Virus record (IMG/VR): IMGVR_UViG_3300024331_000152
Location: 1-64,000 of that record
Origin: a virus
Lineage: Duplodnaviria > Caudoviricetes
Reading direction: 5' to 3' (one strand)
Length of the DNA: 64,000 nt
Shown here: positions 41,925 to 58,149 of the stretch, piece by piece
Position numbering within the stretch: position 1 is the first letter of the stretch
How the letters are laid out: each line of letters opens with the position of its first letter
Translations under genes and position numbers: made by a program
Notes under the pieces: model-generated
Seen by the model: the letters and a program-made list of their open reading frames with translations, nothing else
Databases searched by the model: none
What the model was told of the DNA's origin: nothing

Positions 41925-41930
41925 TGTTGT

Positions 41931-42019: not shown

Positions 42020-42020
42020 T

Positions 42021-42440: not shown

Positions 42441-42467
42441 GACGAGAGTATATGCTAAACTGCGCGC

Positions 42468-42933: not shown

Positions 42934-43139
42934 CCGCAGAAGAACTGCGGGACTTTAGAACCCGCGCACTTGTGATGCAGGAGCAGCAATATCTCGCGCT
43001 GGCATTTGAGGCGGCAAAGGCGGGGCATTTGCGGCTTTGCGATGAACTCTATCGCTGGGCTGCTGACCGTCATCAGAATCTACAACTTTATCTCGGATTG
43101 GTTCCCGACCAAACAGAAGCGCCTGCGCATCGGCAATAG
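42930..43139 (+). CDS. Hypothetical protein
   Basis: ATGA overlap with previous gene; also overlaps the AAA 3' end on the opposite strand. Confidence 0.4.
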   Translation: MTAEELRDFRTRALVMQEQQYLALAFEAAKAGHLRLCDELYRWAADRHQNLQLYLGLVPDQTEAPAHRQ

Positions 43140-44310: not shown

Positions 44311-44420
44311 TCCGAAATAATAGCGCAGATTTTCCAGAATCTGGAAACGATGCTAAAGTGGTGAGCATTCCGTGGTTCCGGCAACACGTTAAGCAACCGG
44401 AAAATCTGAAAGGTAATCTG

Positions 44421-44858: not shown

Positions 44859-44895
44859 TTTGCGAGCTTAGTGAAACCTGTGGTATTTTAGAGTT

Positions 44896-44970
44896 CGCGG
44901 TCGAGTGGATGGGTCCCACGATGCCCTCATAAGGCATAGATTGCAGGTTCGAACCCTGTGACCGCAACCA
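44896..44970 (+). tRNA. tRNA-fMet-like (CAT)
   Basis: C1:A72 mismatch, ATGCC-CTCATAA-GGCAT, ACCA. Confidence 0.75.
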
Positions 44971-44980
44971 ATTGACTGGA

Positions 44981-45208
44981 ATCCTCGGGGCAGCGTTGAA
45001 GCGTTACTAGTACGTGGAGCTTGGTAGAGATTCGCCTTGCAGTATCGTCCCCGATAGGGCAAGGATGTGAGGCCGTCACAACTGGAGAGAGAACCGCCGA
45101 TCTCTGACAACGGCTCAGCGGTGACGCTCAGGAGAGACTGAGGATCTTCAAGGAGGACCCGGCATGACGCTTGATTACCGAGATTGCGAATCGCGAGAGT
45201 CGGTCCTC
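44981..45208 (+). ncRNA. Candidate structured ncRNA between tRNAs
   Basis: ATCCTCGG/CTGAGGAT closing helix, CCTTGC/GCAAGG, TGTGA/TCACA, AGCG-GTGA-CGCT, GAGGACC/GGTCCTC; no ORF. Confidence 0.5.
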
Positions 45209-45216
45209 GAATCTTT

Positions 45217-45291
45217 GGCTGTGTAGCTCAACCAGAGCACCCGTCTTCAAAACGGTAGGTTGCAGGTATACAACCCCTGTCACAGCCACCA
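45217..45291 (+). tRNA. tRNA-like with UCA (opal) anticodon, atypical D/T loops
   Basis: CCGT-CTTCAAA-ACGG, acceptor GGCTGTG/CACAGCC, ACCA; T-loop TATACAACC non-canonical. Confidence 0.6.
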
Positions 45292-45314
45292 ATTCTCTCG
45301 ACAAAATTTCAAAC

Positions 45315-45390
45315 GGGGTAGTAGCATAGCGGCTAATGCACTTGATTGTCGATCAAGCCATCGCGGGTTCGAGTCCCGTCTGCCCCGCCA
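45315..45390 (+). tRNA. tRNA-Asp(GTC)
   Basis: CTTGA-TTGTCGA-TCAAG, GCCA. Confidence 0.9.
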
Positions 45391-45408
45391 TAATTTTCAG
45401 GAGATTCT

Positions 45409-45621
45409 GTGAGCAAGTGGAGCCCAGTAGGTGAAAACGAAACCGGCTTCACTGAAGGTGGAGACCACGGAGAATTCAACTGTGGAAACTGTGTTCACAT
45501 GAAGGATGGCTGCACGCATCCGATCATGAAGGCGATCTCGCAGCGGCCTCGCAAAAAGAACGGAAACGTTGAGGTAGACGAAGATGACTGCTGCACGTTC
45601 GTACGCAGACCGGGAGACTAG
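45409..45621 (+). CDS. Small Cys-rich (Fe-S/HiPIP-like) protein
   Basis: SD AGGAG, C..C.H....C...CC. Confidence 0.5.
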   Translation: MSKWSPVGENETGFTEGGDHGEFNCGNCVHMKDGCTHPIMKAISQRPRKKNGNVEVDEDDCCTFVRRPGD

Positions 45622-46140
45622 ATGATCTGTCCTGATTGCGACAAAGCGGAGATGGTCGAGACTGAAGTGACGCGCGACTTTAAAGTCGGTCGCAAGGAAC
45701 CTGTCACGTTGTCGGCTACGGCGGTAGTTGAGATCTGCCCAGCGTGTAAGTGTGAACTGCACGGCTGGCAGATGGAGAGAGCGAAGTCGCTCGCGATGTC
45801 TAAATGGATGAAGGAAAACCACAGGGTTGACATTAACCCGCCAGAAGATTTGCGGATCGCTCACGCGGCGTCATCGTTTCACCTCAAACAGCTTGAGCAT
45901 GAAGGTAAGGCAGCATGTTTCTATTGCCTACGTTTCTTCAACATCGAGGAGATTGAGGACTGGATCGACAATGAGCAGACGGCGCTCTGTCCGAAGTGTG
46001 GTATTGACTCCGTGATTCCAGAGACGGACAATGTAACACCAGAGTTCCTAAAGCGCATGCAGCAATATTGGTTTGATGCAGGCGCAGACCTTGCAAAGAA
46101 AGATTGTCAGGAGCCTGCTCCTGCAATGCCGGGAACGTAA
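45622..46140 (+). CDS. Double zinc-ribbon protein
   Basis: MqsA-like CPDC..CPAC N-terminus fused to CFYCL..F...EI..WID...TALCPKCGIDSVI domain. Confidence 0.7.
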   Translation: MICPDCDKAEMVETEVTRDFKVGRKEPVTLSATAVVEICPACKCELHGWQMERAKSLAMSKWMKENHRVDINPPEDLRIAHAASSFHLKQLEHEGKAACFYCLRFFNIEEIEDWIDNEQTALCPKCGIDSVIPETDNVTPEFLKRMQQYWFDAGADLAKKDCQEPAPAMPGT

Positions 46141-46199
46141 TGATGGATAGCGTTCAGGACTGACCTTGCCATCCAACTAACCTTTGGAGATAAAACCCA

Positions 46200-46365
46200 A
46201 TGGAAGTCAAACGGAAAGAAATTGAAACGCTGATCGAAAAGTCAGCTAAAAGCACACGATTCTGGAGACGCTATGCGTTTTTCTCAGGCGGCATGTAATT
46301 GTGCAAATGCCATACGCTGCTTGCTCGACGCAGAACTCGAACAAGCTTGTTCCGGCCCGAAGTAG
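46200..46365 (+). pseudogene. Small phage gene with apparent frameshift at GCTAAAAGC
   Basis: MEVKRKEIETLIEKSAK continues as AHDSGDAMRFSQAACNCANA.. only if one A is skipped. Confidence 0.5.
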
Positions 46366-46368
46366 ACC

Positions 46369-46708
46369 GGTGGTTGCACCCCGCCTCGCCGCGAGGCTAA
46401 GTCGCGGCAGAGATTTAAGCATGTAGAAGGCAACTAATCAGATTTCGGACGTGGGTTCGAATCCCACCGAGTCCACCAATCAGCTAACGCGCCGGGGCGA
46501 AACGCCTTGGTTCAACGAAAGTTCAGCTAAGAGTTAAAGCTGGTCCGTTGGCTGATTTGTGGGCTCGCCAAGGTTTCGACGGGATCAGAAGACGTTGTGC
46601 AGTTCATGCCGAGTGCTGTGGCCTGCGTTAAGGGACACGGAAAAAACAAATGCAGATGCTTCGGCACTGCCGATGGCAGCCTAAAAACTGACGTCTGAGG
46701 GTGGCCGC
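46369..46708 (+). ncRNA. ssrA: Circularly permuted (two-piece) tmRNA
   Basis: T-arm plus CGAGTCC-ACCA ends 46478; hairpin-closed spacer; GGGCTCG..TTCGAC starts 46561 (G3:U70); tag ORF 46652-46684 ADASALPMAA-stop. Confidence 0.9.
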
Positions 46709-46745
46709 AATACTCATCAAAGAACCATGCGGCACAAATACGCTA

Positions 46746-47150
46746 ATGCCTTACAAAGACAAAATTAAGCGTGCAGAGTATTGGAGGAATTATGTAATTG
46801 CCAACCCTCACGTCAAAACCAGAACTAAGACCGACAGGAAGCGCGAGAACGGCGAGGGCTGGGAGATTAAGAACCGCATCCCCTTCAAGATCTCGTGCTG
46901 CGATTGTGGTCTCGTCCATAATCTGGTTATCGTAGCTCCGAATACGAGAAAGGGCGCAGTCCTTGGCATCGCTGCGGAACGAAACGAGCGCGCAACCGGA
47001 CAGAAGCGCAGACATTTAGTGACGAACAAGCCAGAGACGCCTGAGGAGGCGGCGCGCAGACTAGGCGTGTCGAAGAAACGTCTCGAATCAATTCGCGAAA
47101 TTATGTCGCGCCCTGTGTTACGCTCAAAGCGAAAACACTTGAATCCCTAA
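46746..47150 (+). CDS. Hypothetical protein (CCDCGLVH motif)
   Basis: MPYKD start, ISCCDCGLVH. Confidence 0.6.
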   Translation: MPYKDKIKRAEYWRNYVIANPHVKTRTKTDRKRENGEGWEIKNRIPFKISCCDCGLVHNLVIVAPNTRKGAVLGIAAERNERATGQKRRHLVTNKPETPEEAARRLGVSKKRLESIREIMSRPVLRSKRKHLNP

Positions 47151-47187
47151 GGCGTTCAGACCGCGAATCTGAGCGTCTCTTTTTTTC

Positions 47188-47216
47188 TTGACAACAGGCG
47201 CAGAGTTTCGTACCTT
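47188..47216 (+). promoter_or_regulatory. Sigma70 promoter, leaderless transcript
   Basis: TTGACA-17 nt-TACCTT, 6 nt before ATG at 47223. Confidence 0.75.
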
Positions 47217-47222
47217 CTGTTC

Positions 47223-47711
47223 ATGCATTGAATCGCCAACACGCATTCATACGTTTTCGTCCGGTACGATCTCTCCCTCGCACAATCTGTAATCCAGTCG
47301 AGCCATGCTACCCATTCGATGGCTAATGGGCTCTCCCAGAGCCCTGAAGTTCCGCATATCGTTCTGATCGGCGTTCCAGACGTCAAGGCCCTTGAACGGG
47401 TCATTCAAAAACTCCGCGACAATCACATTGAATTTGCTGCCTTCGATGAGCCTGACGATAATCTCGGCTTGACGGCGGTCGCTACTGTTCCTCTCAACGA
47501 AGAGCAGAGACTTGTGTTCCAGAACTACAAGATCTGGACTGAAGAAGAATACTTTTACACGCGCGTAGCTCAGTGGTCAGAGCACTCCGGGAGGTTGACG
47601 GAGAGGTCGGCTGTTCGAATCGGTCCGCGCGTACCATGGGCGGTTCATTCGGTGATGTATCCGGTTCGAATCCGGTATCGCCCACCATGCGCGGTTAGCT
47701 CGACTATGTAG
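47223..47711 (+). CDS. Pth2-like peptidyl-tRNA hydrolase with in-frame UGA at codon 3
   Basis: ATG CAT TGA, then in frame YVFVRYDLSLAQSVIQSSHA...IVLIGV....L.......F.EPD...GLTAVA. Confidence 0.75.
47559..47636 (+). tRNA. tRNA-like element with 9-nt anticodon loop (GGAGGTTGA)
   Basis: Canonical D and T arms, ACGCGCG/CGCGCGT-ACCA; no readable anticodon. Confidence 0.7.
47638..47687 (+). ncRNA. Mini tRNA-like element (acceptor plus T arm only)
   Basis: GGGCGGT/ATCGCCC-ACCA, CCGG-TTCGAAT-CCGG. Confidence 0.65.
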
Positions 47712-47737
47712 AGGGGAAGATCCTCGCCCGCGCTCCA
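47689..47737 (+). ncRNA. Mini tRNA-like element
   Basis: GCGCGG/CCGCGC-TCCA, GAGG-GGAAGAT-CCTC. Confidence 0.5.
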
Positions 47738-47743
47738 ATTCGA

Positions 47744-47819
47744 GCGCTCGTGGCTCAGCGGCAGAGCGCCGGTCTTCAAAACCGGGTCAGCGTGGGTTCG
47801 AACCTCACCGAGCGCTCCA
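47744..47819 (+). tRNA. Opal suppressor tRNA (UCA), Gly-like acceptor identity
   Basis: CCGGT-CTTCAAA-ACCGG, canonical cloverleaf, G1:C72 C2:G71 G3:C70 U73. Confidence 0.85.
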
Positions 47820-47926
47820 CTGAAATTTGAGGTAATATATTTCTGCGCGCCGAGCGCGAGACCTGATCAGATCCGTCTCAACGGGCTGGCACGATGTCCA
47901 GCGCATCTAGCAAAAGGAGAATCAAG

Positions 47927-48277
47927 ATGCGTACTCGTTGCAAGTTCCGTGTTGTTGGAATTGAAGATGTTGATCACCAGATCCAGAAAAGGATCTACAA
48001 AGATCAGGTAAGCGCTGAGGAATATGCGGCAATCGAGAGTTCGGAATGGCCAGACCGTAATGGATTTGGGGATATCAGAATGTACAAACTCGTTGGCCTC
48101 GGCCATGCCCAGAACATCCGGCTCGCCGCTCAGTATGATCCATCAATCCCCGAAGATCAGCGCTTTATGGAAGCAACGCCGACTGGAGAGTTGAAGTTTT
48201 ACGTCAGCAACCCAGCAGTGATCGGCGGCTTTCAGATCGGCAAAAATTACTACATTGATCTGATACCATGTGGCTAG
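47927..48277 (+). CDS. Hypothetical phage protein
   Basis: SD AAGGAG; RCKF.V ... E...F..ATP.G.L...V.NP.....F..GK.YYID. Confidence 0.75.
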   Translation: MRTRCKFRVVGIEDVDHQIQKRIYKDQVSAEEYAAIESSEWPDRNGFGDIRMYKLVGLGHAQNIRLAAQYDPSIPEDQRFMEATPTGELKFYVSNPAVIGGFQIGKNYYIDLIPCG

Positions 48278-48305
48278 CAGACCAGTGCCCGACCCTACAC
48301 AGGTC

Positions 48306-48338
48306 AAAAGGCCCATCCAGTTTCTGGACGGGCCTTTT
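48306..48338. terminator. Bidirectional terminator
   Basis: AAAAGGCCC-ATCCAG-TTT-CTGGAC-GGGCCTTTT between convergent genes. Confidence 0.7.
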
Positions 48339-48690
48339 ACTTTACTCGTATCTTCGCTAGCGGTCCGGACGCAATACTCGTGTTCATTTGTCCAGCGATC
48401 ATCTGCTTGGTCTGCACGATGTAGCAGGCCGAGGAATTCTTCGGAATCGCATCAACGTATGCCAGTAGCGTGGTAGGAGATTGCGCGTTGAGCGGGGCGT
48501 AGTTTTTTGCGCTCGTAGCCGGACAGGTTGTTCCTGAGATCATCACACGGCTTACGATGTAGCTGCAAGCTGGCCACCCCGTACCGCAAGTGACAGGCAG
48601 TTGCCATGAGATCGTAACCTTGACGTTGGGCGGCGCGGCTGACGCGTACGTAAAGACGAAAACACCGATGAGAATGATCTTTCGCAGCAT
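48337..48690 (-). CDS. Secreted Fn3-like protein, paralog of 1372-1881
   Basis: Signal peptide; CSYIVSR, GTT.CP, NY.PLN...PT..L.Y.D, CY.VQT.Q shared. Confidence 0.75.
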   Translation of the reverse strand: MLRKIILIGVFVFTYASAAPPNVKVTISWQLPVTCGTGWPACSYIVSRVMISGTTCPATSAKNYAPLNAQSPTTLLAYVDAIPKNSSACYIVQTKQMIAGQMNTSIASGPLAKIRVK

Positions 48691-48843
48691 CGGGAACCCT
48701 CAGAAAATCGTCCAGATTCTGGACCGTGAGCGCAGTATAATACGAAAAGCCAACGGGGCGTCTCTCTAAAGTGGAGACGAATAGTATCAGGTCTTGCCGT
48801 CCGTGACCTGTTTCAAGGCAAATCAAATTGAGACAGGTGAAAA

Positions 48844-49320
48844 ATGGCAGGATACGTGTACCTTATCGGTACGCCAACGTTTCGTTGGTATAAAATCGGC
48901 AAATCCCGCGTTCCTGAGATCAGGATTCAAGATCTCGGAATTCTTCTCCCTTTTAAAATTGAAATTGTTGGTATCTGGAAAGCGCACGACCATACCGCTC
49001 TTGAGTCTCTACTACACGAGCGATACGCCGAAAGAAGAATAAACGGTGAGTGGTTTCACTTCTATCGCGCTGAGGTTATGGGGATATTCGCGTCCCTTCC
49101 TGAAGAAGCGAGGATATTTCCGTCTGGAAATTCCGATTCGTTTTTCGCTAAATTTTCGAACATCGAGCGAGATTGCCCGGAAGGCAAGAGACTTCATTTG
49201 TCTACTAGGAGGGTGCGTGGAAACTTTACAGATGAGCAGAGAGCCTACTTGCGACAAAAAGCGATAGAGGAGCATAAAAAGAAAAAAGCGCTACGGGATG
49301 CAAATAAGAGTATGCTTTAA
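48844..49320 (+). CDS. T5orf172/GIY-YIG domain protein
   Basis: GYVYLI.....YKIG.S..PE.R...L, LE..LH..Y...R.NGEWF. Confidence 0.85.
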   Translation: MAGYVYLIGTPTFRWYKIGKSRVPEIRIQDLGILLPFKIEIVGIWKAHDHTALESLLHERYAERRINGEWFHFYRAEVMGIFASLPEEARIFPSGNSDSFFAKFSNIERDCPEGKRLHLSTRRVRGNFTDEQRAYLRQKAIEEHKKKKALRDANKSML

Positions 49321-49402
49321 GCGTCGGGAAACCGACTATCCAGCAGGCTTGCAACGCGATTGTATGGGGCTTTAGTCTGCGGCCCGTTTCAAGGAGAACC
49401 AA

Positions 49403-50266
49403 ATGATGTATATCAAGCATTTCGTCCTCGCCGTGCGCGTCAACGGTAAAATCCTCAAAGAACATGACCAAGTTGTCCACCTCCCTTTCGGAGCTGAGTA
49501 TGAGCTGTTGCTCAAGAACCTCAACTCGCGCCGCGCGATGGTCGGTGTCTCCATTGACGGCAAGCGTACCAGTGATTGTCGTTTCGTAATTCCAGCTAAC
49601 TCGGAGAGCGTTCTTGAGCGCTACGTCAAAAACGGCAACATGGACTCCGGGAACCGCTTCAAGTTCATCGAACGCACCTCGGCAGTTGAAGAACATCGCG
49701 GAGTGGGATCGGACGACGGTATCGTGCGCGCCGAGTTTTGGGCAGAGCGAGAAGTTGTCACGCTTCCTCGCACAATCATCAATGATTCATGGCTTCCTTC
49801 ATCTCCGTATGATCGCAGGCGTCGCACGCTTGGAAATTCTGGAGGCTTTAGAAGTTTCAGCGGCATCACAGGACAAAGTGTTCCATCTGATGATGTGTCG
49901 TGCATGTACGGTAGTGTTCAAGGTGGAGCTGAGGCCCCGGGATCGAGCTTTAACGTAGGCTCGCTCAATGCGCAGGTGACATACACGTCATCGTTGGGCG
50001 CGGACATGTCGAAGATCGCAGATAACGACGCGGGCATCACCGTCCCGGGCAGCGAGTCGTCGCAGCGCTTCCACTGGACAAACGGCTTCGAGCTGGAGAG
50101 CACAAGCACCGTAATCATACTTCAGCTTCGTGGCGAGATCGGCGGACAGGCTGTTGCTGCGCCGGTCACGGTGGAGTATAAGCCTGTCTGCATCACCTGT
50201 GGCAAGACCAACAAGGGTACCAGCCGTTTCTGTGACCAGTGCGGAACGGCATTGCAAATTCTTTAA
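49403..50266 (+). CDS. Conserved phage protein with C-terminal double zinc ribbon
   Basis: SD AAGGAG; LPFG.EY.LLLKNL..RRA...SIDG; C..CG.......FC.QCG. Confidence 0.75.
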   Translation: MMYIKHFVLAVRVNGKILKEHDQVVHLPFGAEYELLLKNLNSRRAMVGVSIDGKRTSDCRFVIPANSESVLERYVKNGNMDSGNRFKFIERTSAVEEHRGVGSDDGIVRAEFWAEREVVTLPRTIINDSWLPSSPYDRRRRTLGNSGGFRSFSGITGQSVPSDDVSCMYGSVQGGAEAPGSSFNVGSLNAQVTYTSSLGADMSKIADNDAGITVPGSESSQRFHWTNGFELESTSTVIILQLRGEIGGQAVAAPVTVEYKPVCITCGKTNKGTSRFCDQCGTALQIL

Positions 50267-50274
50267 ATAACCTC

Positions 50275-50304
50275 TTGCAATTTGCGCGCATCATAGGTTA
50301 AGGT
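50275..50304 (+). promoter_or_regulatory. Promoter of tRNA array B
   Basis: TTGCAA-18 nt-TAAGGT; shares CTTGCAATTTGCGCGCATC with the array C promoter. Confidence 0.7.
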
Positions 50305-50314
50305 AGGAAGCGTT

Positions 50315-50401
50315 ATGAAACTCAACCGAGCCAATTCGAACCATTCGTTTAATCCAGCGGCACAACCGCAGGGTACAACGCGTGTGCGTGGCTCGGCCTG
50401 A
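50315..50401 (+). CDS. Attenuator leader peptide B (MKLNRANSNHSFNPAAQPQGTTRVRGSA)
   Basis: Codons 13-23 (AAT CCA GCG GCA CAA CCG CAG GGT ACA ACG CGT) are all read by downstream tRNAs. Confidence 0.85.
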   Translation: MKLNRANSNHSFNPAAQPQGTTRVRGSA

Positions 50402-50433
50402 ACAGCATCCTTTAGCAATGCGATGCAGTACAG

Positions 50434-50467
50434 ACCCCCGAGCCTAGATAATAGACTCGGGGGTTTT
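50434..50467 (+). terminator. Intrinsic terminator (attenuator B)
   Basis: ACCCCCGAG...CTCGGGGGT-TTT; CCGAGCC can instead pair with GGCTCGG at 50390-50396. Confidence 0.85.
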
Positions 50468-50999
50468 GATTGGCATGGGAAAGTGGCTGCATCGTGTTTC
50501 GAATATCGATTTTGATTCTCTCACTGGTGATTGCTCTACTTGTGGGCGCGTGAGATTGAAAGTAAAGAAAGGCGGCAGGAGATTTGCATGCGCTGTATCT
50601 GAGCAACGCTGGTGCGATGGACAAAGCGTATCAAAGAGAAGGGCTGCTCGCCGTAGACAAACTAGAAAGTTGCTCGCAAAGCTTCTATCTAGTGGATGTC
50701 GGATATGTCGAGTAGCCAAGAAAGGAATTCATTGTCATCATCTCGATAGTTCCACAAAGAGTTTCAATATTTCGCAAGGGTATACAGACTGTTCCAGAGA
50801 GCTGTTAATTGCCGAGCTGAAAAAATGTATTGCCGTGTGTCAGCAATGCCATACAAAGATTCACTTCAGGCAGTTTGTAGTATCTGAGGATTTGATTTCT
50901 GAGTGGAATAGAGATGTAGATGTTTTATTCACGCGTAGCTCAATGGTAGAGCCCTGCACTGTTAATGCAGTCATTGGGGGTTCGATTCCCTCCGCGTGA
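50466..50999 (+). CDS. HNH endonuclease (reads into tRNA-Asn)
   Basis: C..C...HCHH.D...K.F.IS...ELKKC...CQQCH. Confidence 0.75.
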   Translation: MIGMGKWLHRVSNIDFDSLTGDCSTCGRVRLKVKKGGRRFACAVSEQRWCDGQSVSKRRAARRRQTRKLLAKLLSSGCRICRVAKKGIHCHHLDSSTKSFNISQGYTDCSRELLIAELKKCIAVCQQCHTKIHFRQFVVSEDLISEWNRDVDVLFTRSSMVEPCTVNAVIGGSIPSA

Positions 51000-51003
51000 G
51001 CCA
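50929..51003 (+). tRNA. tRNA-Asn(GTT)
   Basis: CTGCA-CTGTTAA-TGCAG, GCCA. Confidence 0.9.
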
Positions 51004-51010
51004 AATTAGT

Positions 51011-51084
51011 TGCGTCTTCGTTCAGTGGCAGGACGGTTGACTCTGAATCAACACACGGGAGTTCGATTCTCTCAGACGCAGCCA
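51011..51084 (+). tRNA. tRNA-Gln(CTG)
   Basis: GTTGA-CTCTGAA-TCAAC, GCCA. Confidence 0.9.
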
Positions 51085-51092
51085 AATTTTGT

Positions 51093-51168
51093 TGGGAGAT
51101 GGCCGAGCGGCGTAGGCACGAGCCTTTGGATCTCGTACAGGCTGGTTCAACTCCAGCTCTCCCAGCCA
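51093..51168 (+). tRNA. tRNA-Gln(TTG)
   Basis: Loop CTTTGGA, TGGGAGA/TCTCCCA-GCCA. Confidence 0.85.
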
Positions 51169-51169
51169 T

Positions 51170-51245
51170 GCGGATGTAGTTCAATTGGCAGAACGTTGGA
51201 GTGCCACTCCAAAGGTTGCCGGATCGTTGCCGGTCATCCGCTCCA
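51170..51245 (+). tRNA. tRNA-Gly(GCC)
   Basis: TTGGA-GTGCCAC-TCCAA, TCCA. Confidence 0.85.
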
Positions 51246-51282
51246 GTTTGAGGTGAGAGGAATGCATTGAATTGATGATGAC

Positions 51283-51358
51283 GCTGCCGTAGCTCAAGTG
51301 GTAGAGCACCTGTCTCGTAAACAGGAGGTTGGGACTTCGAGTGTCCCCGGTAGCTCCA
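51283..51358 (+). tRNA. tRNA-Thr(CGT)
   Basis: CCTGT-CTCGTAA-ACAGG. Confidence 0.9.
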
Positions 51359-51378
51359 GTTTTCCCTGAGGTGATCTT

Positions 51379-51915
51379 ATGATCCGTAGAACAGTTTTGA
51401 TGCTGAACGCGAGCTACGAACCGCTGCGGATCATCAGCGCAAAGAAGTCCCTGACACTCTTAACCAAGGGTGTTGCCGTGGTGGAGGTACCAACCAAGAT
51501 CCAAGTCCACGCGGGGATCTACTTGCCGAGTGTTATTCGGTTGCGTCATTTCCGCAACGTGCCGCACAAGAGGCCAGTGCCGTCGAGAAAGAACATCTTC
51601 ACCAGAGACGGTTTTCGCTGCTTGTATTGCGGTGCCAAGGCTCCGAAAGTAGTGCTCGAACTTGAGCACATCGTTCCGAGATCGAGAGGCGGAGCAAACG
51701 CTTGGGACAACCTTTGTGCATCTTGTCACGATTGCAACCAGAAGAAGCGTGACAGGACTCCGGAGGAAGCAGGCATGAAGTTGATTCACAGACCTCTGCC
51801 CGCGACCGTACACACCGGCAGGTTCGTCTTGAAGACGATGGGTAACGAAATTGCAGAGTGGGGTCCGTTTCTATGGAAGGACTCTAAGGGCGAACAGAAG
51901 TTGCAGTTCGCATAA
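51379..51915 (+). CDS. HNH endonuclease (McrA-like)
   Basis: [24 protein letters not shown]...[11 protein letters not shown]...[19 protein letters not shown]. Confidence 0.9.
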
Positions 51916-51975
51916 CAAGAAATAGCGCCGGGTTATGGATTGACAATTAAGCTCCGTGTGAAATAAAACGGTCTA

Positions 51976-52368
51976 ATGCCATACAGTGACCCGGCGAAAC
52001 AAAAAGAAGCTCTTCGGCGATGGTATCGCAGAGTTGTTCGTAAAAGACGCACAGATTGGTTTAAAGGAAAGCAATGTGCGACTTGTGGAAGTACGCGAAG
52101 ACTTGAATTGGATCATGTTGATCCAGCGCTGAAGGTGGATCATAAAATTTGGTCATGGAGCGAGAAAAGACGCACTGAAGAGCTTAATAAATGTGTTCCA
52201 CGGTGTAGAACTTGTCACATCGAGAGATCGGCAGAGCAACAACGAAAGCCATTGGTTCACGGAACGCGCGATGGATATATGTGGCATCGTTGTCGCTGTA
52301 GGGAATGCGTTAAAGCTGCGTCGCTCTACCGTAATGAGCAGCGACGTTTGAAGGGACGAAAGAATTAA
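51976..52368 (+). CDS. HNH endonuclease
   Basis: C..CGS...LELDHVDP..K...ELNKC..RC..CH, HGT..GY...CRC..C. Confidence 0.85.
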   Translation: MPYSDPAKQKEALRRWYRRVVRKRRTDWFKGKQCATCGSTRRLELDHVDPALKVDHKIWSWSEKRRTEELNKCVPRCRTCHIERSAEQQRKPLVHGTRDGYMWHRCRCRECVKAASLYRNEQRRLKGRKN

Positions 52369-52369
52369 A

Positions 52370-52444
52370 GCACTCGAAGCATAGTCGGAGATGCCCTCGG
52401 CTTGTATCCGAGAGAACAGAGTTCGAATCTCTGCGAGTGCTCCA
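52370..52444 (+). tRNA. tRNA-Thr(TGT)
   Basis: CTCGG-CTTGTAT-CCGAG. Confidence 0.85.
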
Positions 52445-52510
52445 AAGATGTCGGATGTGGCCCCGAGTTCGAGGAGGAATAGGCGAGAGCTTATCGGGGC
52501 TCAGGTTTAT

Positions 52511-52586
52511 GGAGCTATTGGCCGAGCGGTTTAGGCGCGGGACTGTGACCCCCGACACGAGTGTTCAACTCACTCATAGCTCCCCA
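52511..52586 (+). tRNA. tRNA-His(GTG)
   Basis: Loop CTGTGAC, G-1:C73. Confidence 0.85.
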
Positions 52587-52590
52587 ATTT

Positions 52591-52665
52591 GGGGCTGTAG
52601 TGCTAATGGGAACACACTGGTTTTGCACTCCAGAGTTGAGAGTTCGATTCTCTCCAGCTCCACCA
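52591..52665 (+). tRNA. tRNA-Ala(TGC)
   Basis: G3:U70, loop TTTGCAC. Confidence 0.9.
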
Positions 52666-52714
52666 AATTTACGCAGGCGCTGAGCCCTCTCTGTTCTATA
52701 CGTGACACGCTCAG

Positions 52715-52863
52715 GGAAGAAGATCAAAGGTGTCGCGTATATGCTCGCTTTTGGTTACAACCTTGAAAGAATTAAGGCAGAAATCGCAAAATGCGTCGTA
52801 CGCTGCGCGAACTGTCACCGCCGCCGAACGGCGAAGGTTTTAGGAAATTGGAAGTTGCACCAT
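52715..52863 (+). pseudogene. C-terminal remnant of an HNH endonuclease
   Basis: GKKIKGVAYM...IKAEIAKCVVRCANCHRRRT with no N-terminus or start. Confidence 0.65.
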
Positions 52864-52940
52864 CAGGGCGTAGCCTAGCGGCTTCAGGCACTCGCTTCGG
52901 GAGCGAGATGACGTGAGTTCGAATCTCACCGCCCCGACCA
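52864..52940 (+). tRNA. tRNA-Pro(CGG)
   Basis: CTCGC-TTCGGGA-GCGAG. Confidence 0.9.
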
Positions 52941-52986
52941 TTTTAACGAGCCGGTTTTCATTAAAGAAATCGGCTGAAAATTTTAA

Positions 52987-53064
52987 CCGGGTTTAGCCTA
53001 GTCTGGCTCAGGCACCTGCTTTGGGAGCAGGACGACGGGGGTTCAAATCCCTCAGCCCGGACCA
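52987..53064 (+). tRNA. tRNA-Pro(TGG)
   Basis: CCTGC-TTTGGGA-GCAGG. Confidence 0.9.
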
Positions 53065-53065
53065 T

Positions 53066-53154
53066 GCACCCGTAGCCTAGCGGATTCAGGTAACGGTCTA
53101 CGAAACCGTCGAGGGAAACCTCTTACGCAGGTTCGATTCCTGCCGGGTGCTCCA
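53066..53154 (+). tRNA. tRNA-Arg(ACG) with long variable arm
   Basis: ACGGT-CTACGAA-ACCGT, extra GAGG-GAAA-CCTC arm. Confidence 0.85.
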
Positions 53155-53168
53155 TAATTGTAAGTGTT

Positions 53169-53223
53169 CGGCGCGGTGAGGCTGGGCGTGGCACGGTGAG
53201 GTTTGGTTCGGTATGGTTTGGCA
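53169..53223 (+). repeat. 5-nt periodic (NGGNN)x11 tract
   Basis: cggcg cggtg aggct gggcg tggca cggtg aggtt tggtt cggta tggtt tggca. Confidence 0.8.
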
Positions 53224-53250
53224 TTCTTGCCATGAGGAGGGTTATGCGAA

Positions 53251-53655
53251 TTGAAAAGGACATTTGGTCAGCGAGCTGCTGACTGGGTTACTGAAGCAAG
53301 TGGTAGCTGGCCGTTCATTCTGTGGTCAGTTGTTCTTGGCGTACTCTGGGTCTTGTCGAATGTGAGCAAGGTCCTTGTCTTCGATCCGTATCCTTTCCTG
53401 TTTTTGAACTGGGTGCTGACTGTGATCAGCACGTTGCAATCCCCGCTCATCATGCTGTCGCAGAATCGGCAGAATGAAACTGATCGCGAGCGCGTAGATA
53501 TGATCGTCCAGAAGCTGGACGATCATATCCGGGAAATTAAATTGCGCGCATGGCGAAGTTGTGGTAGGGTAGTCAAGTTGGGCTCAGGCCCGAGATTGAT
53601 CTTTGAAATCAAGTTTCCGTGGGTTGTAAACATGGATGGCCTTAAAAGATCCTGA
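53251..53655 (+). CDS. DUF1003 membrane protein
   Basis: FGQRAAD.....GSWPFI, FDPYPFLFLN..L......Q.P.IMLSQNRQ...DR. Confidence 0.9.
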   Translation: MKRTFGQRAADWVTEASGSWPFILWSVVLGVLWVLSNVSKVLVFDPYPFLFLNWVLTVISTLQSPLIMLSQNRQNETDRERVDMIVQKLDDHIREIKLRAWRSCGRVVKLGSGPRLIFEIKFPWVVNMDGLKRS

Positions 53656-53696
53656 CGTTAGGTTAGGCTCCGAAGCGTCCGGTCCACGGGATCAAG

Positions 53697-53808
53697 TTTC
53701 CGCTGACAGTGTTGCTTACATGGCAGGGTAACCTGCATTTCACTACGAATGAAAAACCGGGGCAACCCGGGTGTACCCGAAAGGGTTGCAGCACGACACC
53801 AGCGGAGA
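53697..53808 (+). ncRNA. Candidate structured RNA (multi-way junction, three GNRA loops)
   Basis: TTTCCGCTG/CAGCGGAGA, GTGTTGC/GCAGCAC, GCAGG-GTAA-CCTGC, CCGGG-GCAA-CCCGG, ACCC-GAAA-GGGT. Confidence 0.65.
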
Positions 53809-53831
53809 AAGTTTGGGTTGACTTGTTTGCA

Positions 53832-53903
53832 TACATGGTAGCTCATTTGGTAGAGCATTCGCCTCTTAAGCGAAGGGTAGTCGGTTCAATTCCGAGTCGC
53901 AGA
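53832..53903 (+). pseudogene. tRNA-Lys(CTT)-like element without paired acceptor stem
   Basis: Intact D arm, TTCGC-CTCTTAA-GCGAA, TCGG-TTCAATT-CCGA; flanks do not pair, no CCA. Confidence 0.6.
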
Positions 53904-54118
53904 ACGTCTCTGTACCTGAGTACGTTGATGACAATCTTCGCGCCATCAAGCGTGAGATCGAGAGCCGTCAGGCTGACCGTCGTGCGGCTCGTGTACGCGA
54001 GTTGAAGTCGCAGCGCGCCGGTCTTGCAACCGCTCAGGAGAAGCGGGAGGCCATCGAGAAGGAGCTTGCCTCACTCGGCGAGCCTGTCTAGCCATCGTCC
54101 AGAAACTGGAAAGGCCCG

Positions 54119-54340
54119 CTATGTGCGGGCCTTCTTTTTGTTTGCCTGCTCCAGCTTCTTGCGGGCACGTTCCTTGCTGATAGCGAGGTTCAGTGCGCTG
54201 GTGTACGAGAGGCAGTAGATAGCACGCGTGCCCTTGGCGCGCAGTTCCATCCAGTCAGCCTTGAACTCGACTACGATGGAGCGGGTCTTACCCCGCTCCC
54301 ATACGCAGTTCTCAGTCTCGACGACATCTTGAGGGGGCAC
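54119..54340 (-). CDS. Hypothetical protein
   Basis: R.IVVE......LR.KGTR..Y.L pattern. Confidence 0.55.
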   Translation of the reverse strand: MPPQDVVETENCVWERGKTRSIVVEFKADWMELRAKGTRAIYCLSYTSALNLAISKERARKKLEQANKKKART

Positions 54341-54468
54341 ACGCGGTACTCAACCGAACCCATCACAAACGTACAGCAAGCGCTTGAGAGATACGGCATC
54401 AAGAACGTGCACGCGGGTCATCTGGAGAAGCTTGCCGAGGTATTTGGGATTGCGGCGAAAAAAGAAGC

Positions 54469-54498
54469 TTGCAATTTGCGCGCATCCTGAGTTAAGCT
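54469..54498 (+). promoter_or_regulatory. Promoter of tRNA array C
   Basis: TTGCAA-18 nt-TAAGCT; 19-bp identity with the array B promoter. Confidence 0.7.
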
Positions 54499-54508
54499 CT
54501 ATTTCGTT

Positions 54509-54577
54509 ATGCAGAGAACTATAGCCATGTCGATCACCAAAGGGACCAAGAGGGTCATTTGGGGAGGCGTGTCTTAG
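54509..54577 (+). CDS. Attenuator leader peptide C (MQRTIAMSITKGTKRVIWGGVS)
   Basis: Contains AGA, AGG, ATA, ATC/ATT, ATG, AAA, AAG, ACC/ACT, GGA/GGG, TGG, GTG, matching downstream anticodons. Confidence 0.85.
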   Translation: MQRTIAMSITKGTKRVIWGGVS

Positions 54578-54603
54578 GGGTCTGCACGAGTAGGTTTCAT
54601 CAG

Positions 54604-54628
54604 ACCCCGACTCAGGTCGGGGTTTTTT
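54604..54628 (+). terminator. Intrinsic terminator (attenuator C)
   Basis: ACCCCGAC-TCAG-GTCGGGGT-TTTTT; CAGACCCC can instead pair with GGGGTCTG at 54577-54584. Confidence 0.9.
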
Positions 54629-54646
54629 GTTGTTTGACAAGTTTAT

Positions 54647-54716
54647 AGGGGATGATCTGGGATCGACGAGGTCTCCAAAACCTCACAGCGGAGTTCAATT
54701 CTCCGATCCCCTGCCA
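54647..54716 (+). tRNA. tRNA-Trp(CCA), minimal D arm
   Basis: GAGGT-CTCCAAA-ACCTC, GCCA. Confidence 0.8.
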
Positions 54717-54719
54717 TTT

Positions 54720-54796
54720 GCCAGCGAAGCAGAAGTGGATATTGCGCGCGTCTCATAAGCGCGTTGTAGTGGGTTCGAGTCCCACCGTTGGCACCA
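54720..54796 (+). tRNA. tRNA-Met/Ile2(CAT)
   Basis: CGCGT-CTCATAA-GCGCG, ACCA. Confidence 0.85.
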
Positions 54797-54798
54797 AG

Positions 54799-54854
54799 TT
54801 CACAGCGGTGTTCGCCTTACTCTGACGGCGCAATACCGTCCCGCTGTGAATCCA
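54799..54854 (+). ncRNA. Mini tRNA-like element
   Basis: TTCACAGCGG/CCGCTGTGAA-TCCA with 5-bp/7-nt arm GACGG-CGCAATA-CCGTC. Confidence 0.5.
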
Positions 54855-54864
54855 GTTTCTGGAC

Positions 54865-54944
54865 GCACGTGTAGCTGCTAGTCGGTATGTAGCAGTCCCC
54901 TTATAAGGGACCGGTTGTGGGTTCGACACCCGCCACGTGCACCA
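54865..54944 (+). tRNA. tRNA-Ile(TAT)
   Basis: GTCCC-CTTATAA-GGGAC, ACCA. Confidence 0.85.
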
Positions 54945-54995
54945 AAATTAGCATCAAACCTGTTACGTCACCGGGAGACTGACAGGAGGAGAGCT

Positions 54996-55202
54996 ATGCT
55001 CATTACCCTGTTTTGGATCATTGCAGTTCTCGTTGTGGCTGGTCTTCTGTTGTACCTGATCAACACGATCCCGGGAATCGATCCAACGATCCACGCACTG
55101 ATCAGGGCTGTTGTGATCATCGTCTGCGTGGTCTTTGTGCTGTACTTTGTGTTCTCGTTGTTTAGCGGAGTGGCAATTCCAAGTCCGCACTTTACGAGGT
55201 AG
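54996..55202 (+). CDS. Small 2-TM membrane protein
   Basis: SD AGGAGG; L.YLIN.IP.ID......IR.VVII. Confidence 0.75.
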   Translation: MLITLFWIIAVLVVAGLLLYLINTIPGIDPTIHALIRAVVIIVCVVFVLYFVFSLFSGVAIPSPHFTR

Positions 55203-55207
55203 TTTTT

Positions 55208-55282
55208 GGGCTGTAAGCTTTGTCGGCGAAGCAATCGACTCTTAATCGATAGAGCAGGGTTCGATTCCCTGACGGCCCACCA
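55208..55282 (+). tRNA. tRNA-Lys(CTT)
   Basis: ATCGA-CTCTTAA-TCGAT. Confidence 0.9.
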
Positions 55283-55340
55283 AATTTTGCGAAGGAGAAG
55301 TGAGATGCGAAAACAGAAAGATGACCCAGATAAACGAATT

Positions 55341-55416
55341 GGGGTCGTCGCATAGAGGCAACTGCAACGGACTTTTAATCCGAATGACGTGAGTTCGAAT
55401 CTCACCGGCCCCACCA
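55341..55416 (+). tRNA. tRNA-Lys(TTT)
   Basis: CGGA-CTTTTAA-TCCG. Confidence 0.9.
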
Positions 55417-55425
55417 TAGTTTTTT

Positions 55426-55502
55426 GCTGGCGTAACTCAGACGGACAGAGTGCCTGTCTTCTAAACAGGAAGCCGCTGGTTCGACTCCAGCCGTCAGCAC
55501 CA
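55426..55502 (+). tRNA. tRNA-Arg(TCT)
   Basis: CCTGT-CTTCTAA-ACAGG. Confidence 0.9.
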
Positions 55503-55503
55503 T

Positions 55504-55579
55504 GGCCCCTTAGCTCAGTCGGAAGAGCGGATCGGTCCTAACGATAAGGTCGGGAGTTCGAATCTCTCAGGGGTCACCA
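55504..55579 (+). tRNA. tRNA-Arg(CCT)
   Basis: ATCG-GTCCTAA-CGAT. Confidence 0.85.
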
Positions 55580-55585
55580 AGTTTT

Positions 55586-55662
55586 GCTGCCGTATCGGCC
55601 TCGCCTCCGAAGCGAGATCCCGTAGGTGGATAAGGCTGGTTCGAATCCAGTCGGCAGCTCCA
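55586..55662 (+). tRNA. D-armless tRNA-Arg(CCG)-like element
   Basis: GCTGCCG/CGGCAGC-TCCA, CTCGC-CTCCGAA-GCGAG, canonical T arm, no D stem. Confidence 0.7.
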
Positions 55663-55667
55663 GTTTT

Positions 55668-55742
55668 GCGGATGTAGATCAACGGTAGATCGGGTGTCTT
55701 ACAAGCACTTCGTCGTGGGTTCAACTCCTACCATCCGCACCA
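55668..55742 (+). tRNA. tRNA-Val(TAC)
   Basis: GGTGT-CTTACAA-GCACT, ACCA. Confidence 0.85.
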
Positions 55743-56220
55743 ACTTGTCGTGATCGAGTTCCCAATGGTGATTACGGCACAAGCCGACAAGATTATTAGG
55801 GCGATTAACGATTCCTAATGTCGTAGATTCGGCGAACTCACAAACGGGAGTGAGATGACAACAATCAACGTAGAGGTTGTAGCCGCAGATGGCGCATTTC
55901 TTCAAGAGTCCCGCTCTTAAAGCAACGCTCCTTGCATGAGATCGCACTACAGTATCGTAGGCGTTTCGAGATCCGGACTTTTTAAGATCTGCTAGGGTGA
56001 CAGATTCAAAATCTCGGCGACGGCAATCGCGACAACTTTTAACCCGATAGCGGTCTAGTATTTTGCCGCATTTTGGGCATGAATATATCTTTCGCGCATA
56101 CCCTTTCCAAGGGGTTCTAATTCTTTCTTTATTGTTGTAGATGGCCGCACATGACGAATTACAAAAACGTGGATTATTTGTTGGAACGTCGCAGTTGGCG
56201 CAGGTACGACGAAAGTTCAT
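55699..56220 (-). CDS. HNH endonuclease (antisense insertion in array C)
   Basis: FCNSSCAA..NN, CAICGY...VDCCH......N...NLV.LC.NHHWE.D; leaderless TACCAT-6 nt-ATG. Confidence 0.85.
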   Translation of the reverse strand: MNFRRTCANCDVPTNNPRFCNSSCAAIYNNKERIRTPWKGYARKIYSCPKCGKILDRYRVKSCRDCRRRDFESVTLADLKKSGSRNAYDTVVRSHARSVALRAGLLKKCAICGYNLYVDCCHLTPVCEFAESTTLGIVNRPNNLVGLCRNHHWELDHDKLVRMVGVEPTTKCL

Positions 56221-56347
56221 AGAAAGATGGTACCGGAGCTGTAGACAACGGCACCACCTTTTTAAAGAAGTAGCACAGGTTATCGTGCGAAAGAGTCATT
56301 CCTTATTCTGGACAAGACAAGGACTGGCTGTATGTTCAAAATTGAAC

Positions 56348-56424
56348 GCTGCCGTAGCTCAGTTGGCCAGAGCACACCCTTGGTAAGGGTGAGGTCGTCA
56401 GTTCGAAACTGACCGGTAGCTCCA
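56348..56424 (+). tRNA. tRNA-Thr(GGT)
   Basis: CACCC-TTGGTAA-GGGTG. Confidence 0.95.
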
Positions 56425-56430
56425 TATTGT

Positions 56431-56506
56431 TGGCGGATAGCTCAGGTGGTCAGAGCACGCGACCGATAATCGCGAGGCCGGAGTTCAACTCTCCGTCCGC
56501 CAACCA
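56431..56506 (+). tRNA. tRNA-Ile(GAT)
   Basis: CGCGA-CCGATAA-TCGCG. Confidence 0.85.
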
Positions 56507-56512
56507 AAGTTA

Positions 56513-56596
56513 GCGGGGGTCGCTCAGTGGTAGAGCCGCTGCCTTCCAAGCAGCCGACCTTGTGTCATGCGGGTTCGAATCCCGTCCCCCGCTCCA
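56513..56596 (+). tRNA. tRNA-Gly(TCC) with extended variable arm
   Basis: GCTGC-CTTCCAA-GCAGC, TCCA. Confidence 0.9.
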
Positions 56597-57335
56597 AAGC
56601 TTTCAAGATCGCTTGGGCGTCACTATTATAGAAGCCACTCGAATTGAGACAGTTGAATTCGAGGACGTAAATATCCTCTCCAACTAAACAGAGATCCATC
56701 ACTACGGTCGGGTGCGGAAGCCAATCTTTCGCGCAGTCTGCGGCGGCTTCGAATACCCACTCGTACACAGTCTCCCGGATGCGACGGACTCCGTTGTGCC
56801 GGTATTGCGATCCAGCTACTACAACACCATCGACAACAAAGAAACGCCACTCCTGAGTAATCTCCCTTACTGGGCTAATCAGCATCTCGTCTTCGCCGTT
56901 CGGCTCTGTCTGTTCAATAAGCCACCAGTTGCGGTCTGCGGGTTCAAGAACCATTCCCGTATGGAGCTTATCTTTTACCGACTTCACGAAGACTGGTTCG
57001 GCTATCCACTCACTGCGCAGCTCAGCAGCCGTAATGGTCTTGATTTCCTTGTTTAGCATGCGCGGGTGCTTCCATGTGCGGGGATCGAACATACCGGGCC
57101 TGTAGAAGGCTCCCGGGCTCATCAGAGACGGCGCAAGGGAAGCCAACAGCGTAGAACCATAGACAAGCGTCGGCTGCAAGAGATCGAAGCCAGCAGGGAT
57201 TATCAGCTCATGCGAAAAGGGTACTACCTTCACTGTCTCGTAAGACATGCCGAGCGCTTGTAGCGCATCGGTCATCTGTTGAGTATTCGTATCGAGGATG
57301 CCGAATCCTTCTGAGTGCTCGACTAGCCATTGCAT
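56565..57335 (-). CDS. ATP-grasp domain protein (DUF4343/R2K-like)
   Basis: VVPFS, YGS, VFVK....K..TG.V, EWRFFVVDG.VV.GS.Y, VMD......LEFN.LNSSGFY. Confidence 0.85.
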   Translation of the reverse strand: MQWLVEHSEGFGILDTNTQQMTDALQALGMSYETVKVVPFSHELIIPAGFDLLQPTLVYGSTLLASLAPSLMSPGAFYRPGMFDPRTWKHPRMLNKEIKTITAAELRSEWIAEPVFVKSVKDKLHTGMVLEPADRNWWLIEQTEPNGEDEMLISPVREITQEWRFFVVDGVVVAGSQYRHNGVRRIRETVYEWVFEAAADCAKDWLPHPTVVMDLCLVGEDIYVLEFNCLNSSGFYNSDAQAILKALERGTGFEPA

Positions 57336-57358
57336 ACAACTAATGGTAAACTGCGCGC

Positions 57359-57613
57359 ATGGCCCTCCGTATAAACAATGAAAGCAAAGAAGAGCGCGAC
57401 GCCGAGCGTGCGCTATGGCGCAAACAGCAAATCGAAGATCGTGAGTTCGAGAAGACGCAGACGATGGAATATCAGCGTCGGGAAGACCTCATATCCGAAC
57501 GAGATCTCTGGGCCGGGACAGTACAAGGGTTGATGGATAACGGACGGACTCTCGATCAGGCAATCGGACTTGCAGATAAGCTACTCGTAGAGTACAAGGT
57601 TCGATTTTCATGA
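57359..57613 (+). CDS. Hypothetical protein (leaderless)
   Basis: TGgTAAACT-GCGCGC-ATG. Confidence 0.65.
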   Translation: MALRINNESKEERDAERALWRKQQIEDREFEKTQTMEYQRREDLISERDLWAGTVQGLMDNGRTLDQAIGLADKLLVEYKVRFS

Positions 57614-57804
57614 TCTTCATCGCTTATTTGACTATTGGAATTCTCTACGCTATCGCCCGGTATGGCAAAATACGCCGTGTTGCGAAAGTGGTGGTTGCTG
57701 AGCGCTGCTGGCGTTTCCTGAGCCCCGCTATGATCGAGATGGTTGGAGCCTCAAGCGTGTGTCTTCTCTGGCCAATTTTTGTCTACATCGACATCACCTC
57801 GTGA
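57610..57804 (+). CDS. Small membrane protein
   Basis: Two hydrophobic segments, LLWP motif. Confidence 0.55.
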   Translation: MIFIAYLTIGILYAIARYGKIRRVAKVVVAERCWRFLSPAMIEMVGASSVCLLWPIFVYIDITS

Positions 57805-57816
57805 TAAACTGCGCGC

Positions 57817-58149
57817 ATGCCGCTATATGCGAAACCCGGCGAACGTCAGTACGATGGAACACTTCCCTTTCCCGGAATCGTCTATTGCTCTGACTGCGGT
57901 GCGCCGATCATTGACACGCCAACACATCACTATACTCACCGCATTCGAGTTCATTCTGTAAAGATCCAACTTGAGCGTTTGCCGACAACAAAACCAGCGA
58001 TTCTTCCACATGAATATAAGCCTCGGATCAGTGAAGAGGATAGCTGTCTGTGTGGCGCGTGCTTAGAGGGCAATTGTCTAGCCTGTGACGGCGGAGAGTG
58101 TAGATGTGTGTGTGCGCTCGAAATGGACGAAATCAGAGTTCGCCGGTAG
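57817..58149 (+). CDS. Cys-rich hypothetical protein (leaderless)
   Basis: TGaTAAACT-GCGCGC-ATG; many Cys. Confidence 0.6.
   Translation: MPLYAKPGERQYDGTLPFPGIVYCSDCGAPIIDTPTHHYTHRIRVHSVKIQLERLPTTKPAILPHEYKPRISEEDSCLCGACLEGNCLACDGGECRCVCALEMDEIRVRR

Follow-up and report, generated by a model that had tools for sequence, protein, structure and literature searches.

The stretch of viral DNA analysed here, 64,000 nucleotides long and hereafter called the window, is the start of one 142,794-bp virus record, IMGVR_UViG_3300024331_000152 (Duplodnaviria; Caudoviricetes). Between 41 and 57 kb it carries a tRNA cluster composed of 36 tRNA genes called by ARAGORN and a permuted transfer-messenger RNA (tmRNA), all on the + strand, with HNH and T5orf172-type endonuclease genes scattered among the tRNAs. 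The subject of this report is a segment of that cluster, hereafter unit C, in which a short open reading frame (ORF) and two mutually exclusive RNA helices precede an array of tRNA genes, and which probably functions as a ribosome-mediated transcription attenuator. The elements of unit C are the following, in window coordinates.

54469-54498, + strand: promoter-like site, with a -35 hexamer at 54469-54474, a -10-like hexamer at 54493-54498 and an 18-nt spacer
54509-54577, + strand: leader ORF C, 22 sense codons and a TAG stop codon at 54575-54577
54537-54562, + strand: hairpin P1, internal to the ORF, two stacked helices, -11.1 kcal/mol
54577-54608, + strand: predicted antiterminator P2, arms 54577-54584 and 54601-54608, -15.8 kcal/mol
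54602-54631, + strand: predicted intrinsic terminator P3, stem 54602-54625, loop 54612-54615, T-run 54623-54628, -17.4 kcal/mol
54647-54716, + strand: tRNA-Trp(CCA)-like gene, the first of array C, whose fold has a 4-bp D-stem and a 3-nt D-loop; it has no ARAGORN call and a weak Rfam match
54720-55742, + strand: proximal tRNAs, Met(CAT), Ile(TAT), Lys(CTT), Lys(TTT), Arg(TCT), Arg(CCT), a D-armless tRNA(CCG) and Val(TAC)
55586-55662, + strand: the D-armless tRNA(CCG), detected by folding
56348-56596, + strand: distal tRNAs, Thr(GGT), Ile(GAT) and Gly(TCC), called by ARAGORN

On its sequence, the site at 54469-54498 is promoter-like; it is not listed by a strict promoter scan. Its first 18 nt (54469-54486) are identical to positions 50275-50292, which lie upstream of a second leader, leader B, and have no other copy in the 142.8-kb genome. 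A third leader, leader A, has a different, consensus-like promoter (40884-40912). Leader ORF C begins 10 nt past the -10-like hexamer, which is the position expected in a leader-peptide attenuator. The transcript is predicted to start a few nucleotides before the ATG, and its 5' untranslated region (UTR) would hence be very short and without a Shine-Dalgarno sequence. In most members of the family of relatives of leader C described below, the UTRs are longer and contain weak GAG-rich motifs. Leaderless mRNA was considered as a general feature of these units; it fits the three leaders of the window and some relatives, but was rejected, as most members of the C family have about 20 nt between the -10 hexamer and the ATG.

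The codons of leader C mirror the tRNAs that follow it. Array C comprises 12 tRNAs, namely 10 called by ARAGORN (54720-56596) and two tRNA-like genes added by folding. These tRNAs read 15 of the 21 post-start codons of the leader, and 11 of the 12 are sampled; the sampled codons include both Lys codons, AGA, AGG, ATA, and the Trp and Met codons. The only tRNA of the array that has no codon in the leader is the D-armless tRNA(CCG), which corresponds to the codon CGG. The same count, 11 of 12 with CGG left out, had been given in an initial annotation made from the sequence of the window alone, and it is confirmed here by ARAGORN and folding. When 21,968 segments of 21 codons each were drawn from the phage's own long ORFs, none contained 15 array-read codons, and a fraction of 2.7e-4 sampled at least 11 tRNAs. 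With array C restricted to its ARAGORN tRNAs, the matched fraction is 0.67 in frame 0, as against 0.30 and 0.15 in the other two frames, and 0.67 was reached by none of 5000 composition-preserving shuffles of the leader. The match is also specific for the array: leader C scores 0.67 with its own array, and 0.10 with array A and 0.10 with array B. Base composition was considered as a source of the match, since the three arrays are segregated by codon composition, and is excluded by the frame specificity and the shuffles. The initial annotation had moreover described a rare-codon leader containing AGA, ATA, AGG and GGA. This holds for AGA, AGG and ATA, which occur at 4.2-5.3 per 1000 codons in the long ORFs of the phage and are the rarest Arg and Ile codons there, but not for GGA, which occurs at 21.5 per 1000.

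The other two leaders of the window precede tRNA arrays of different content.

40923-40994: leader A, preceding a Leu/Cys/Ser/Tyr array
50315-50401: leader B, preceding an Asn/Gln/Gly/Thr/His/Ala/Pro/Arg block

The nearest cultured relative of the virus is Tunturiibacter phage Tunturi_5 (308 kb, Acidobacteriota host), whose AAA protein is about 39% identical to that of the window; it has been cultured with its host, Tunturiibacter psychrotolerans (PMC11924767). Three syntenic units are present in Tunturi_5, and all three are also found in two IMG/VR phages, G001 and G003. Among the 12 leaders A, B and C of these four phages, each matches its own array better than any other, without a tie, in 12 cases of 12, and frame 0 is the best frame, again in 12 of 12. 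Leader and array C also covary. The C-type array of Tunturi_5 contains, in addition to the tRNAs of the window, Asp, two Glu, Val(GAC) and Arg(ACG), and its C leader, which is 49 codons long and samples 16 of 16 tRNAs, contains in addition six Asp, two Glu, four GTY and six CGC codons. Conversely, array C of the window is devoid of those extra tRNAs, and its leader is devoid of those codons except for one GTC. The C leader of Tunturi_5 seems alignable to the family of the window over its first few residues only.

The two helices downstream of the ORF are arranged as a switch. The first nucleotide of the 5' arm of P2, GGGGTCTG (8 nt, 54577-54584), is the last base of the stop codon, and the 3' arm, CAGACCCC (54601-54608), is the perfect complement of this arm. 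P2 and P3 have positions 54602-54608 (7 nt) in common and are therefore mutually exclusive. All the elements that had been listed initially are thus present, that is, the ORF at 54509-54577, the 8-nt arm starting on the last base of the stop, its perfect complement and the overlapping terminator. The energies given above were obtained by folding P1, P2 and P3 each in isolation; compared with shuffles, each gives a z value between -2.5 and -4.0. Furthermore, masked folds of transcripts cut before the 3' arm of the terminator follow attenuator switching in five leaders from the window and Tunturi_5.

Relatives were recovered by means of short DNA patterns drawn from the leaders. Used as queries, the flanking ATP-grasp and AAA proteins gave no related locus in IMG/VR, and a tail-fibre-like protein gave no tblastn match against phage records. 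The pattern for the C family consisted of 20 nt of the C leader; it matched 4 IMG/VR contigs and at least 119 metagenome contigs, and the homologues come from soil, peat and permafrost metagenomes. The resulting set contains 91 distinct leaders of 21-27 codons, of which an alignment of 89 sequences (A1) was made, and the codon columns were counted over 87 relatives. Array C is syntenic in 44 of the 44 contigs that have at least 1.5 kb of downstream sequence. In this family it contains Trp, Met, Ile(TAT), two Lys, three Arg and Val, sometimes also Thr, Ile(GAT) and Gly, and in 36 of the 44 contigs ARAGORN calls a tRNA-Trp 66-105 nt past the leader stop. One phage, L028/L029, has a rearranged genome in which array C comes directly after array A and array B lies on the opposite strand; here too, array C is preceded by the C leader, which has travelled with it.

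Both helices are maintained in the family. Across the 89 distinct sequences the antiterminator is 98.1% paired, compared with 24-48% when the partner is slid; the changes it has undergone mostly preserve pairing through wobble, while its loop is variable in both sequence and length. For the terminator, the paired fraction is 89%; three of its pairs carry compensatory changes, with both sides altered, and at one pair 41 sequences have GC and 32 have CG. In the distant members G001, G003, L028 and L033 the terminator sequences differ, and the overlap with the antiterminator is retained. P1 is also found by RNAalifold in the 89-sequence alignment, with nearly all of its pairs retained, and is a candidate for an RNA polymerase pause hairpin or for a hairpin of the region 1:2 type. 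Between the terminator and tRNA-Trp, a T-rich box ending in TTTGA(A/C)AA is kept across the family (54632-54641; columns 137-150 of A1); it may serve as a signal for processing, or else belong to the terminator as a distal part.

One explanation for these data that does not invoke regulation is that P3 is a constitutive, leaky terminator located after a small gene, that the ORF encodes a micro-protein or nothing, and that the tRNA genes receive a fixed, low level of read-through. It would agree with the terminator being the most stable structure in every fold, with the good conservation of the leader peptide sequence in the C family and with the annotation of the Tunturi_5 homologue as a hypothetical protein. 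It leaves unexplained, however, why three leaders unrelated to one another match, in frame and in all 12 cases, three arrays of different content, and why a second helix has been conserved that adjoins the stop codon and is incompatible with the terminator. The pattern of codon change is equally hard to account for in this way. The codons that hardly vary outside the search motif are AAA, ATA, AGA, ATG, AAG and ACC, all of which are read by the array and show almost no synonymous swaps, whereas the variable columns correspond to codons that the array does not read; near-zero synonymous change at matched codons thus stands beside free non-synonymous change elsewhere. A leaky terminator is therefore an unlikely explanation.

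Still less probable is that unit C is an untranslated, structured RNA leader, that is, a processing, pausing or stability element in which the ORF is incidental. The missing Shine-Dalgarno sequence of the window leader and the three conserved hairpins, which span much of the element, are what one would expect of such an RNA. Yet the C-leader ORF is open in 91 of 91 distinct relatives, against 1 of 91 for the +1 frame, the ATG is kept in 84 of 87, and the common indel within the ORF is exactly 3 nt long, which preserves the frame. In addition, the stop codon adjoins the antiterminator arm in the C-family members inspected, and the codon match is confined to frame 0. Nor does the element resemble a known structured RNA: cmscan of 40000-58000, with E values up to 1, returned only tRNA, tmRNA and chance hits, and nothing at 54469-54640, the Rfam Trp, His, Leu and Thr leaders and the T-box included.

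Similarly far from probable is a sensor that works, like TnaC or SecM, by nascent-peptide arrest, with a ligand stalling the ribosome at or near the stop and codon identity being secondary. The last eight residues, Trp among them, are indeed nearly invariant in the C family. This C-terminal segment, however, coincides with the search motif and also makes up half of P1, which accounts for part of its conservation, and the same codon-to-array logic is followed without the motif by leaders A and B and by the C leader of Tunturi_5. Arrest at the stop would, moreover, place the ribosome over the antiterminator arm, and the switch would be fixed in its off state.

The reading retained here is that unit C is a ribosome-mediated (leader-peptide) transcription attenuator that would raise tRNA transcription when decoding is slow, to which I assign a probability of about 0.75. 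Unit C possesses every structural feature of an attenuator that was looked for: the ORF, the codon enrichment, the terminator and the exclusive antiterminator. The reading is strongly supported by the conservation of the units, the maintenance of both helices, the frame-specific codon match and the covariation of leader and array in Tunturi_5, and this comparative evidence likewise speaks strongly for the initial proposal that a ribosome at the stop would favour termination. That ORF C is translated, in which direction the switch operates and what the physiological signal is are inferences.

The switch might work as follows. Transcription would begin a few bases before leader ORF C. Were decoding fast, the ribosome would get to the stop codon and cover the 8-nt arm at 54577-54584; with the arm covered, the antiterminator would be blocked, the terminator would fold and transcription would end 16 nt ahead of the first tRNA. 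Conversely, scarcity of a cognate aminoacyl-tRNA, which could arise early in infection, from a mismatch in codon usage or from loss of host tRNAs, would stall the ribosome within approximately the first 18 codons. The arm would then be free and would pair with 54601-54608 first, the terminator would be pre-empted, and the tRNA genes would be transcribed. The outcome would be a negative feedback on tRNA supply. The first tRNA (54647) begins 16 nt past the T-rich tail of the terminator, and there is therefore no room for a separate array promoter.

Several observations weigh against the attenuator. Whatever mask was applied, folding gave the terminator as the thermodynamic ground state, and in the window the 5' arm can be taken up by a weak, G-U-rich local hairpin at the same time as the terminator folds (-23.1 kcal/mol). 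Because of this hairpin, the description of unit C as the cleanest switch in the initial annotation must be qualified. Since the terminator is always the minimum and the 5' arm is able to pair elsewhere, control must therefore be kinetic and coupled to transcription. Single-sequence shuffles support the C antiterminator at P ~0.02, and for six leaders of the window and Tunturi_5 the corresponding values are 0.02-0.63, which is weak to modest; the case for the C antiterminator accordingly rests on its conservation in the family. As regards the leader, 6 of its 21 codons are not read by array C, and the sole codon matched to Val(TAC) is the 21st, too near the switch for the proposed action. Without a Shine-Dalgarno sequence and with a predicted 5' UTR of a few bases, the C leader of the window would rely for its translation on leaderless-type initiation. 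Several of the conserved codons sit in the conserved P1, so that RNA structure could explain part of the codon conservation. In four metagenomic contigs, apparent anticodon variants of the array (CGT for CCT, TCG for TCT and TGT for TAT) are accompanied by no matching change in the leader; these variants may be recent, miscalled or assembly noise. Finally, the last three tRNAs may be uncoupled from the leader by an HNH gene on the opposite strand, together with a promoter-like site at 56309 that may serve them in this phage.

This HNH gene splits the array, and one further ORF is embedded in it.

55702-56220, - strand: HNH endonuclease gene (Pfam HNH_2), interrupting array C
54996-55202, + strand: ORF of 68 aa, strongly hydrophobic, with a strong Shine-Dalgarno sequence, between Ile(TAT) and Lys(CTT)

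In relatives, the Val-Thr-Ile-Gly genes are contiguous. The 68-aa ORF has no Pfam match. In the place of the tRNA-Trp-like gene at 54647-54716, relatives have a canonical tRNA-Trp. CCA-ending, minihelix-like elements consisting of an acceptor stem and a T-arm only occur among the tRNAs at 47637-47737 and 54799-54854, and are spaced like true tRNAs.

The D-armless tRNA(CCG) had initially been suggested to be a non-decoding tRNA on the ground that CGG is not sampled by the leader. This argument does not stand up to comparison. Three phages share a tRNA(CCG) that lacks the D-arm and has a long, conserved variable region (window 55586-55662, L033:986-1082 and L028:5770-5932), and in L033 and L028 its anticodon and T stems carry compensatory changes while the anticodon loop is invariant. 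The leaders of L033 and L028 contain CGG, and the leader position concerned is CGG in 87 of 87 relatives and AGG in the window alone; on this alignment the AGG of the window is a lineage-specific substitution. The lack of CGG in the window leader is therefore uninformative as to decoding by tRNA(CCG). In each of the three phages, the leader samples two of the three Arg isoacceptors. From its sequence conservation, the D-armless tRNA(CCG) looks like a selected, possibly functional non-canonical tRNA and not like a decayed gene. Homology with the canonical tRNA-Arg(CCG) of G003 and Tunturi_5 was considered and rejected, the alignment being poor.

Other features were noted elsewhere in the tRNA region. 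Between the first two tRNA-Leu genes of array A lies a tRNA-Cys(GCA) with C at position 33 (~41132-41213), missed by ARAGORN and found by folding; it fits both leader A, which has one Cys codon, and Tunturi_5, which has a Cys gene in the corresponding place. The phage-encoded tmRNA (46386-46775) is of the permuted, two-piece type (Rfam RF04321, 78 bits). Two tRNAs have the anticodon TCA, which would read UGA (45217-45288 and 47744-47819); ARAGORN calls one of them tRNA-SeC, and the other is detected by Rfam only. The long ORFs are intact under code 11, which indicates that there is no general UGA recoding. TGA is the stop codon of leader B and of 86 of the 91 C-family leaders. A 20-codon ORF at 45164-45226, with a strong Shine-Dalgarno sequence, overlaps at its end with the beginning of the tRNA(TCA) gene located before tRNA-Asp. 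Asp and Glu codons are present in this ORF, which has no terminator and may be another kind of leader or a chance occurrence.

The function and expression of large phage tRNA arrays are an active question, for which the candidate roles are compensation for codon usage, substitution for host tRNAs that have been degraded and escape from defences that cleave tRNAs. If the attenuator reading is true, the tRNA supply of a phage is feedback-controlled at isoacceptor resolution, and classical attenuation extends from metabolism to the decoding machinery. There would also be a sequence signature for monitored tRNAs, a mini-ORF whose codons mirror the downstream tRNAs. The C family is abundant in soil and peat viromes. 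A further step, which is tentative and on balance somewhat doubtful, would be to regard the three leaders together as a multiplexed, isoacceptor-resolved sensor of tRNA failure, and the arrays as an inducible counter-defence instead of a constitutive aid to codon usage. Each leader would then be a test strip for one tRNA block, and the phage would resupply exactly those tRNAs that are lacking in the host or have been destroyed by anticodon nucleases or infection-induced decay. Since a cultured relative, Tunturi_5, and its host exist, the idea of an attenuator is directly testable.

Multivalent leader-peptide attenuators are known from enterobacteria, where they control ilvGMEDA (Ile/Leu/Val) and thr (Thr/Ile); trpL, hisL, leuL and pheL are other leaders of the kind. 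Unit C resembles these amino-acid operon attenuators in having a promoter-proximal short ORF rich in regulatory codons, a terminator before the regulated genes, an overlapping antiterminator, a stop codon placed for blocking by the ribosome and possibly a pause hairpin. It differs from them in that it would control tRNAs and not biosynthetic enzymes, and it bears no sequence relation to them. The make-up of the leader is also different. Whereas the leaders of amino-acid operons repeat one or two codons, leader C has approximately one codon per isoacceptor, for 11 isoacceptors and 8 amino acids, and separates synonymous codons (AAA/AAG, AGA/AGG and ATA/ATY).

Two known systems come close to unit C in what they sense or regulate. 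In Escherichia coli, the pheST operon is controlled by the pheM leader, in which a run of Phe codons governs the expression of the synthetase. As in unit C, leader-peptide attenuation is applied to a gene of the translation apparatus and produces a feedback on decoding capacity, but the gene is that of a synthetase and not of a tRNA, and multiple isoacceptors are not sampled. T-box riboswitches, for their part, recognise a single uncharged tRNA by means of a specifier codon and the T-box motif; the binding is direct and involves no ribosome. They share with unit C a terminator/antiterminator switch that responds to the state of tRNA, and differ in that unit C has an ORF and many tRNAs would be read. 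To my knowledge, all leader-peptide attenuators described so far regulate amino-acid biosynthesis or synthetase genes. A search of the literature, which included the Tunturi paper (PMC11924767) and had subscription journals mostly outside its scope, found no description of the attenuation of tRNA genes. What would be new in unit C is that an attenuator is applied to tRNA genes, and that its leader samples many isoacceptors once.

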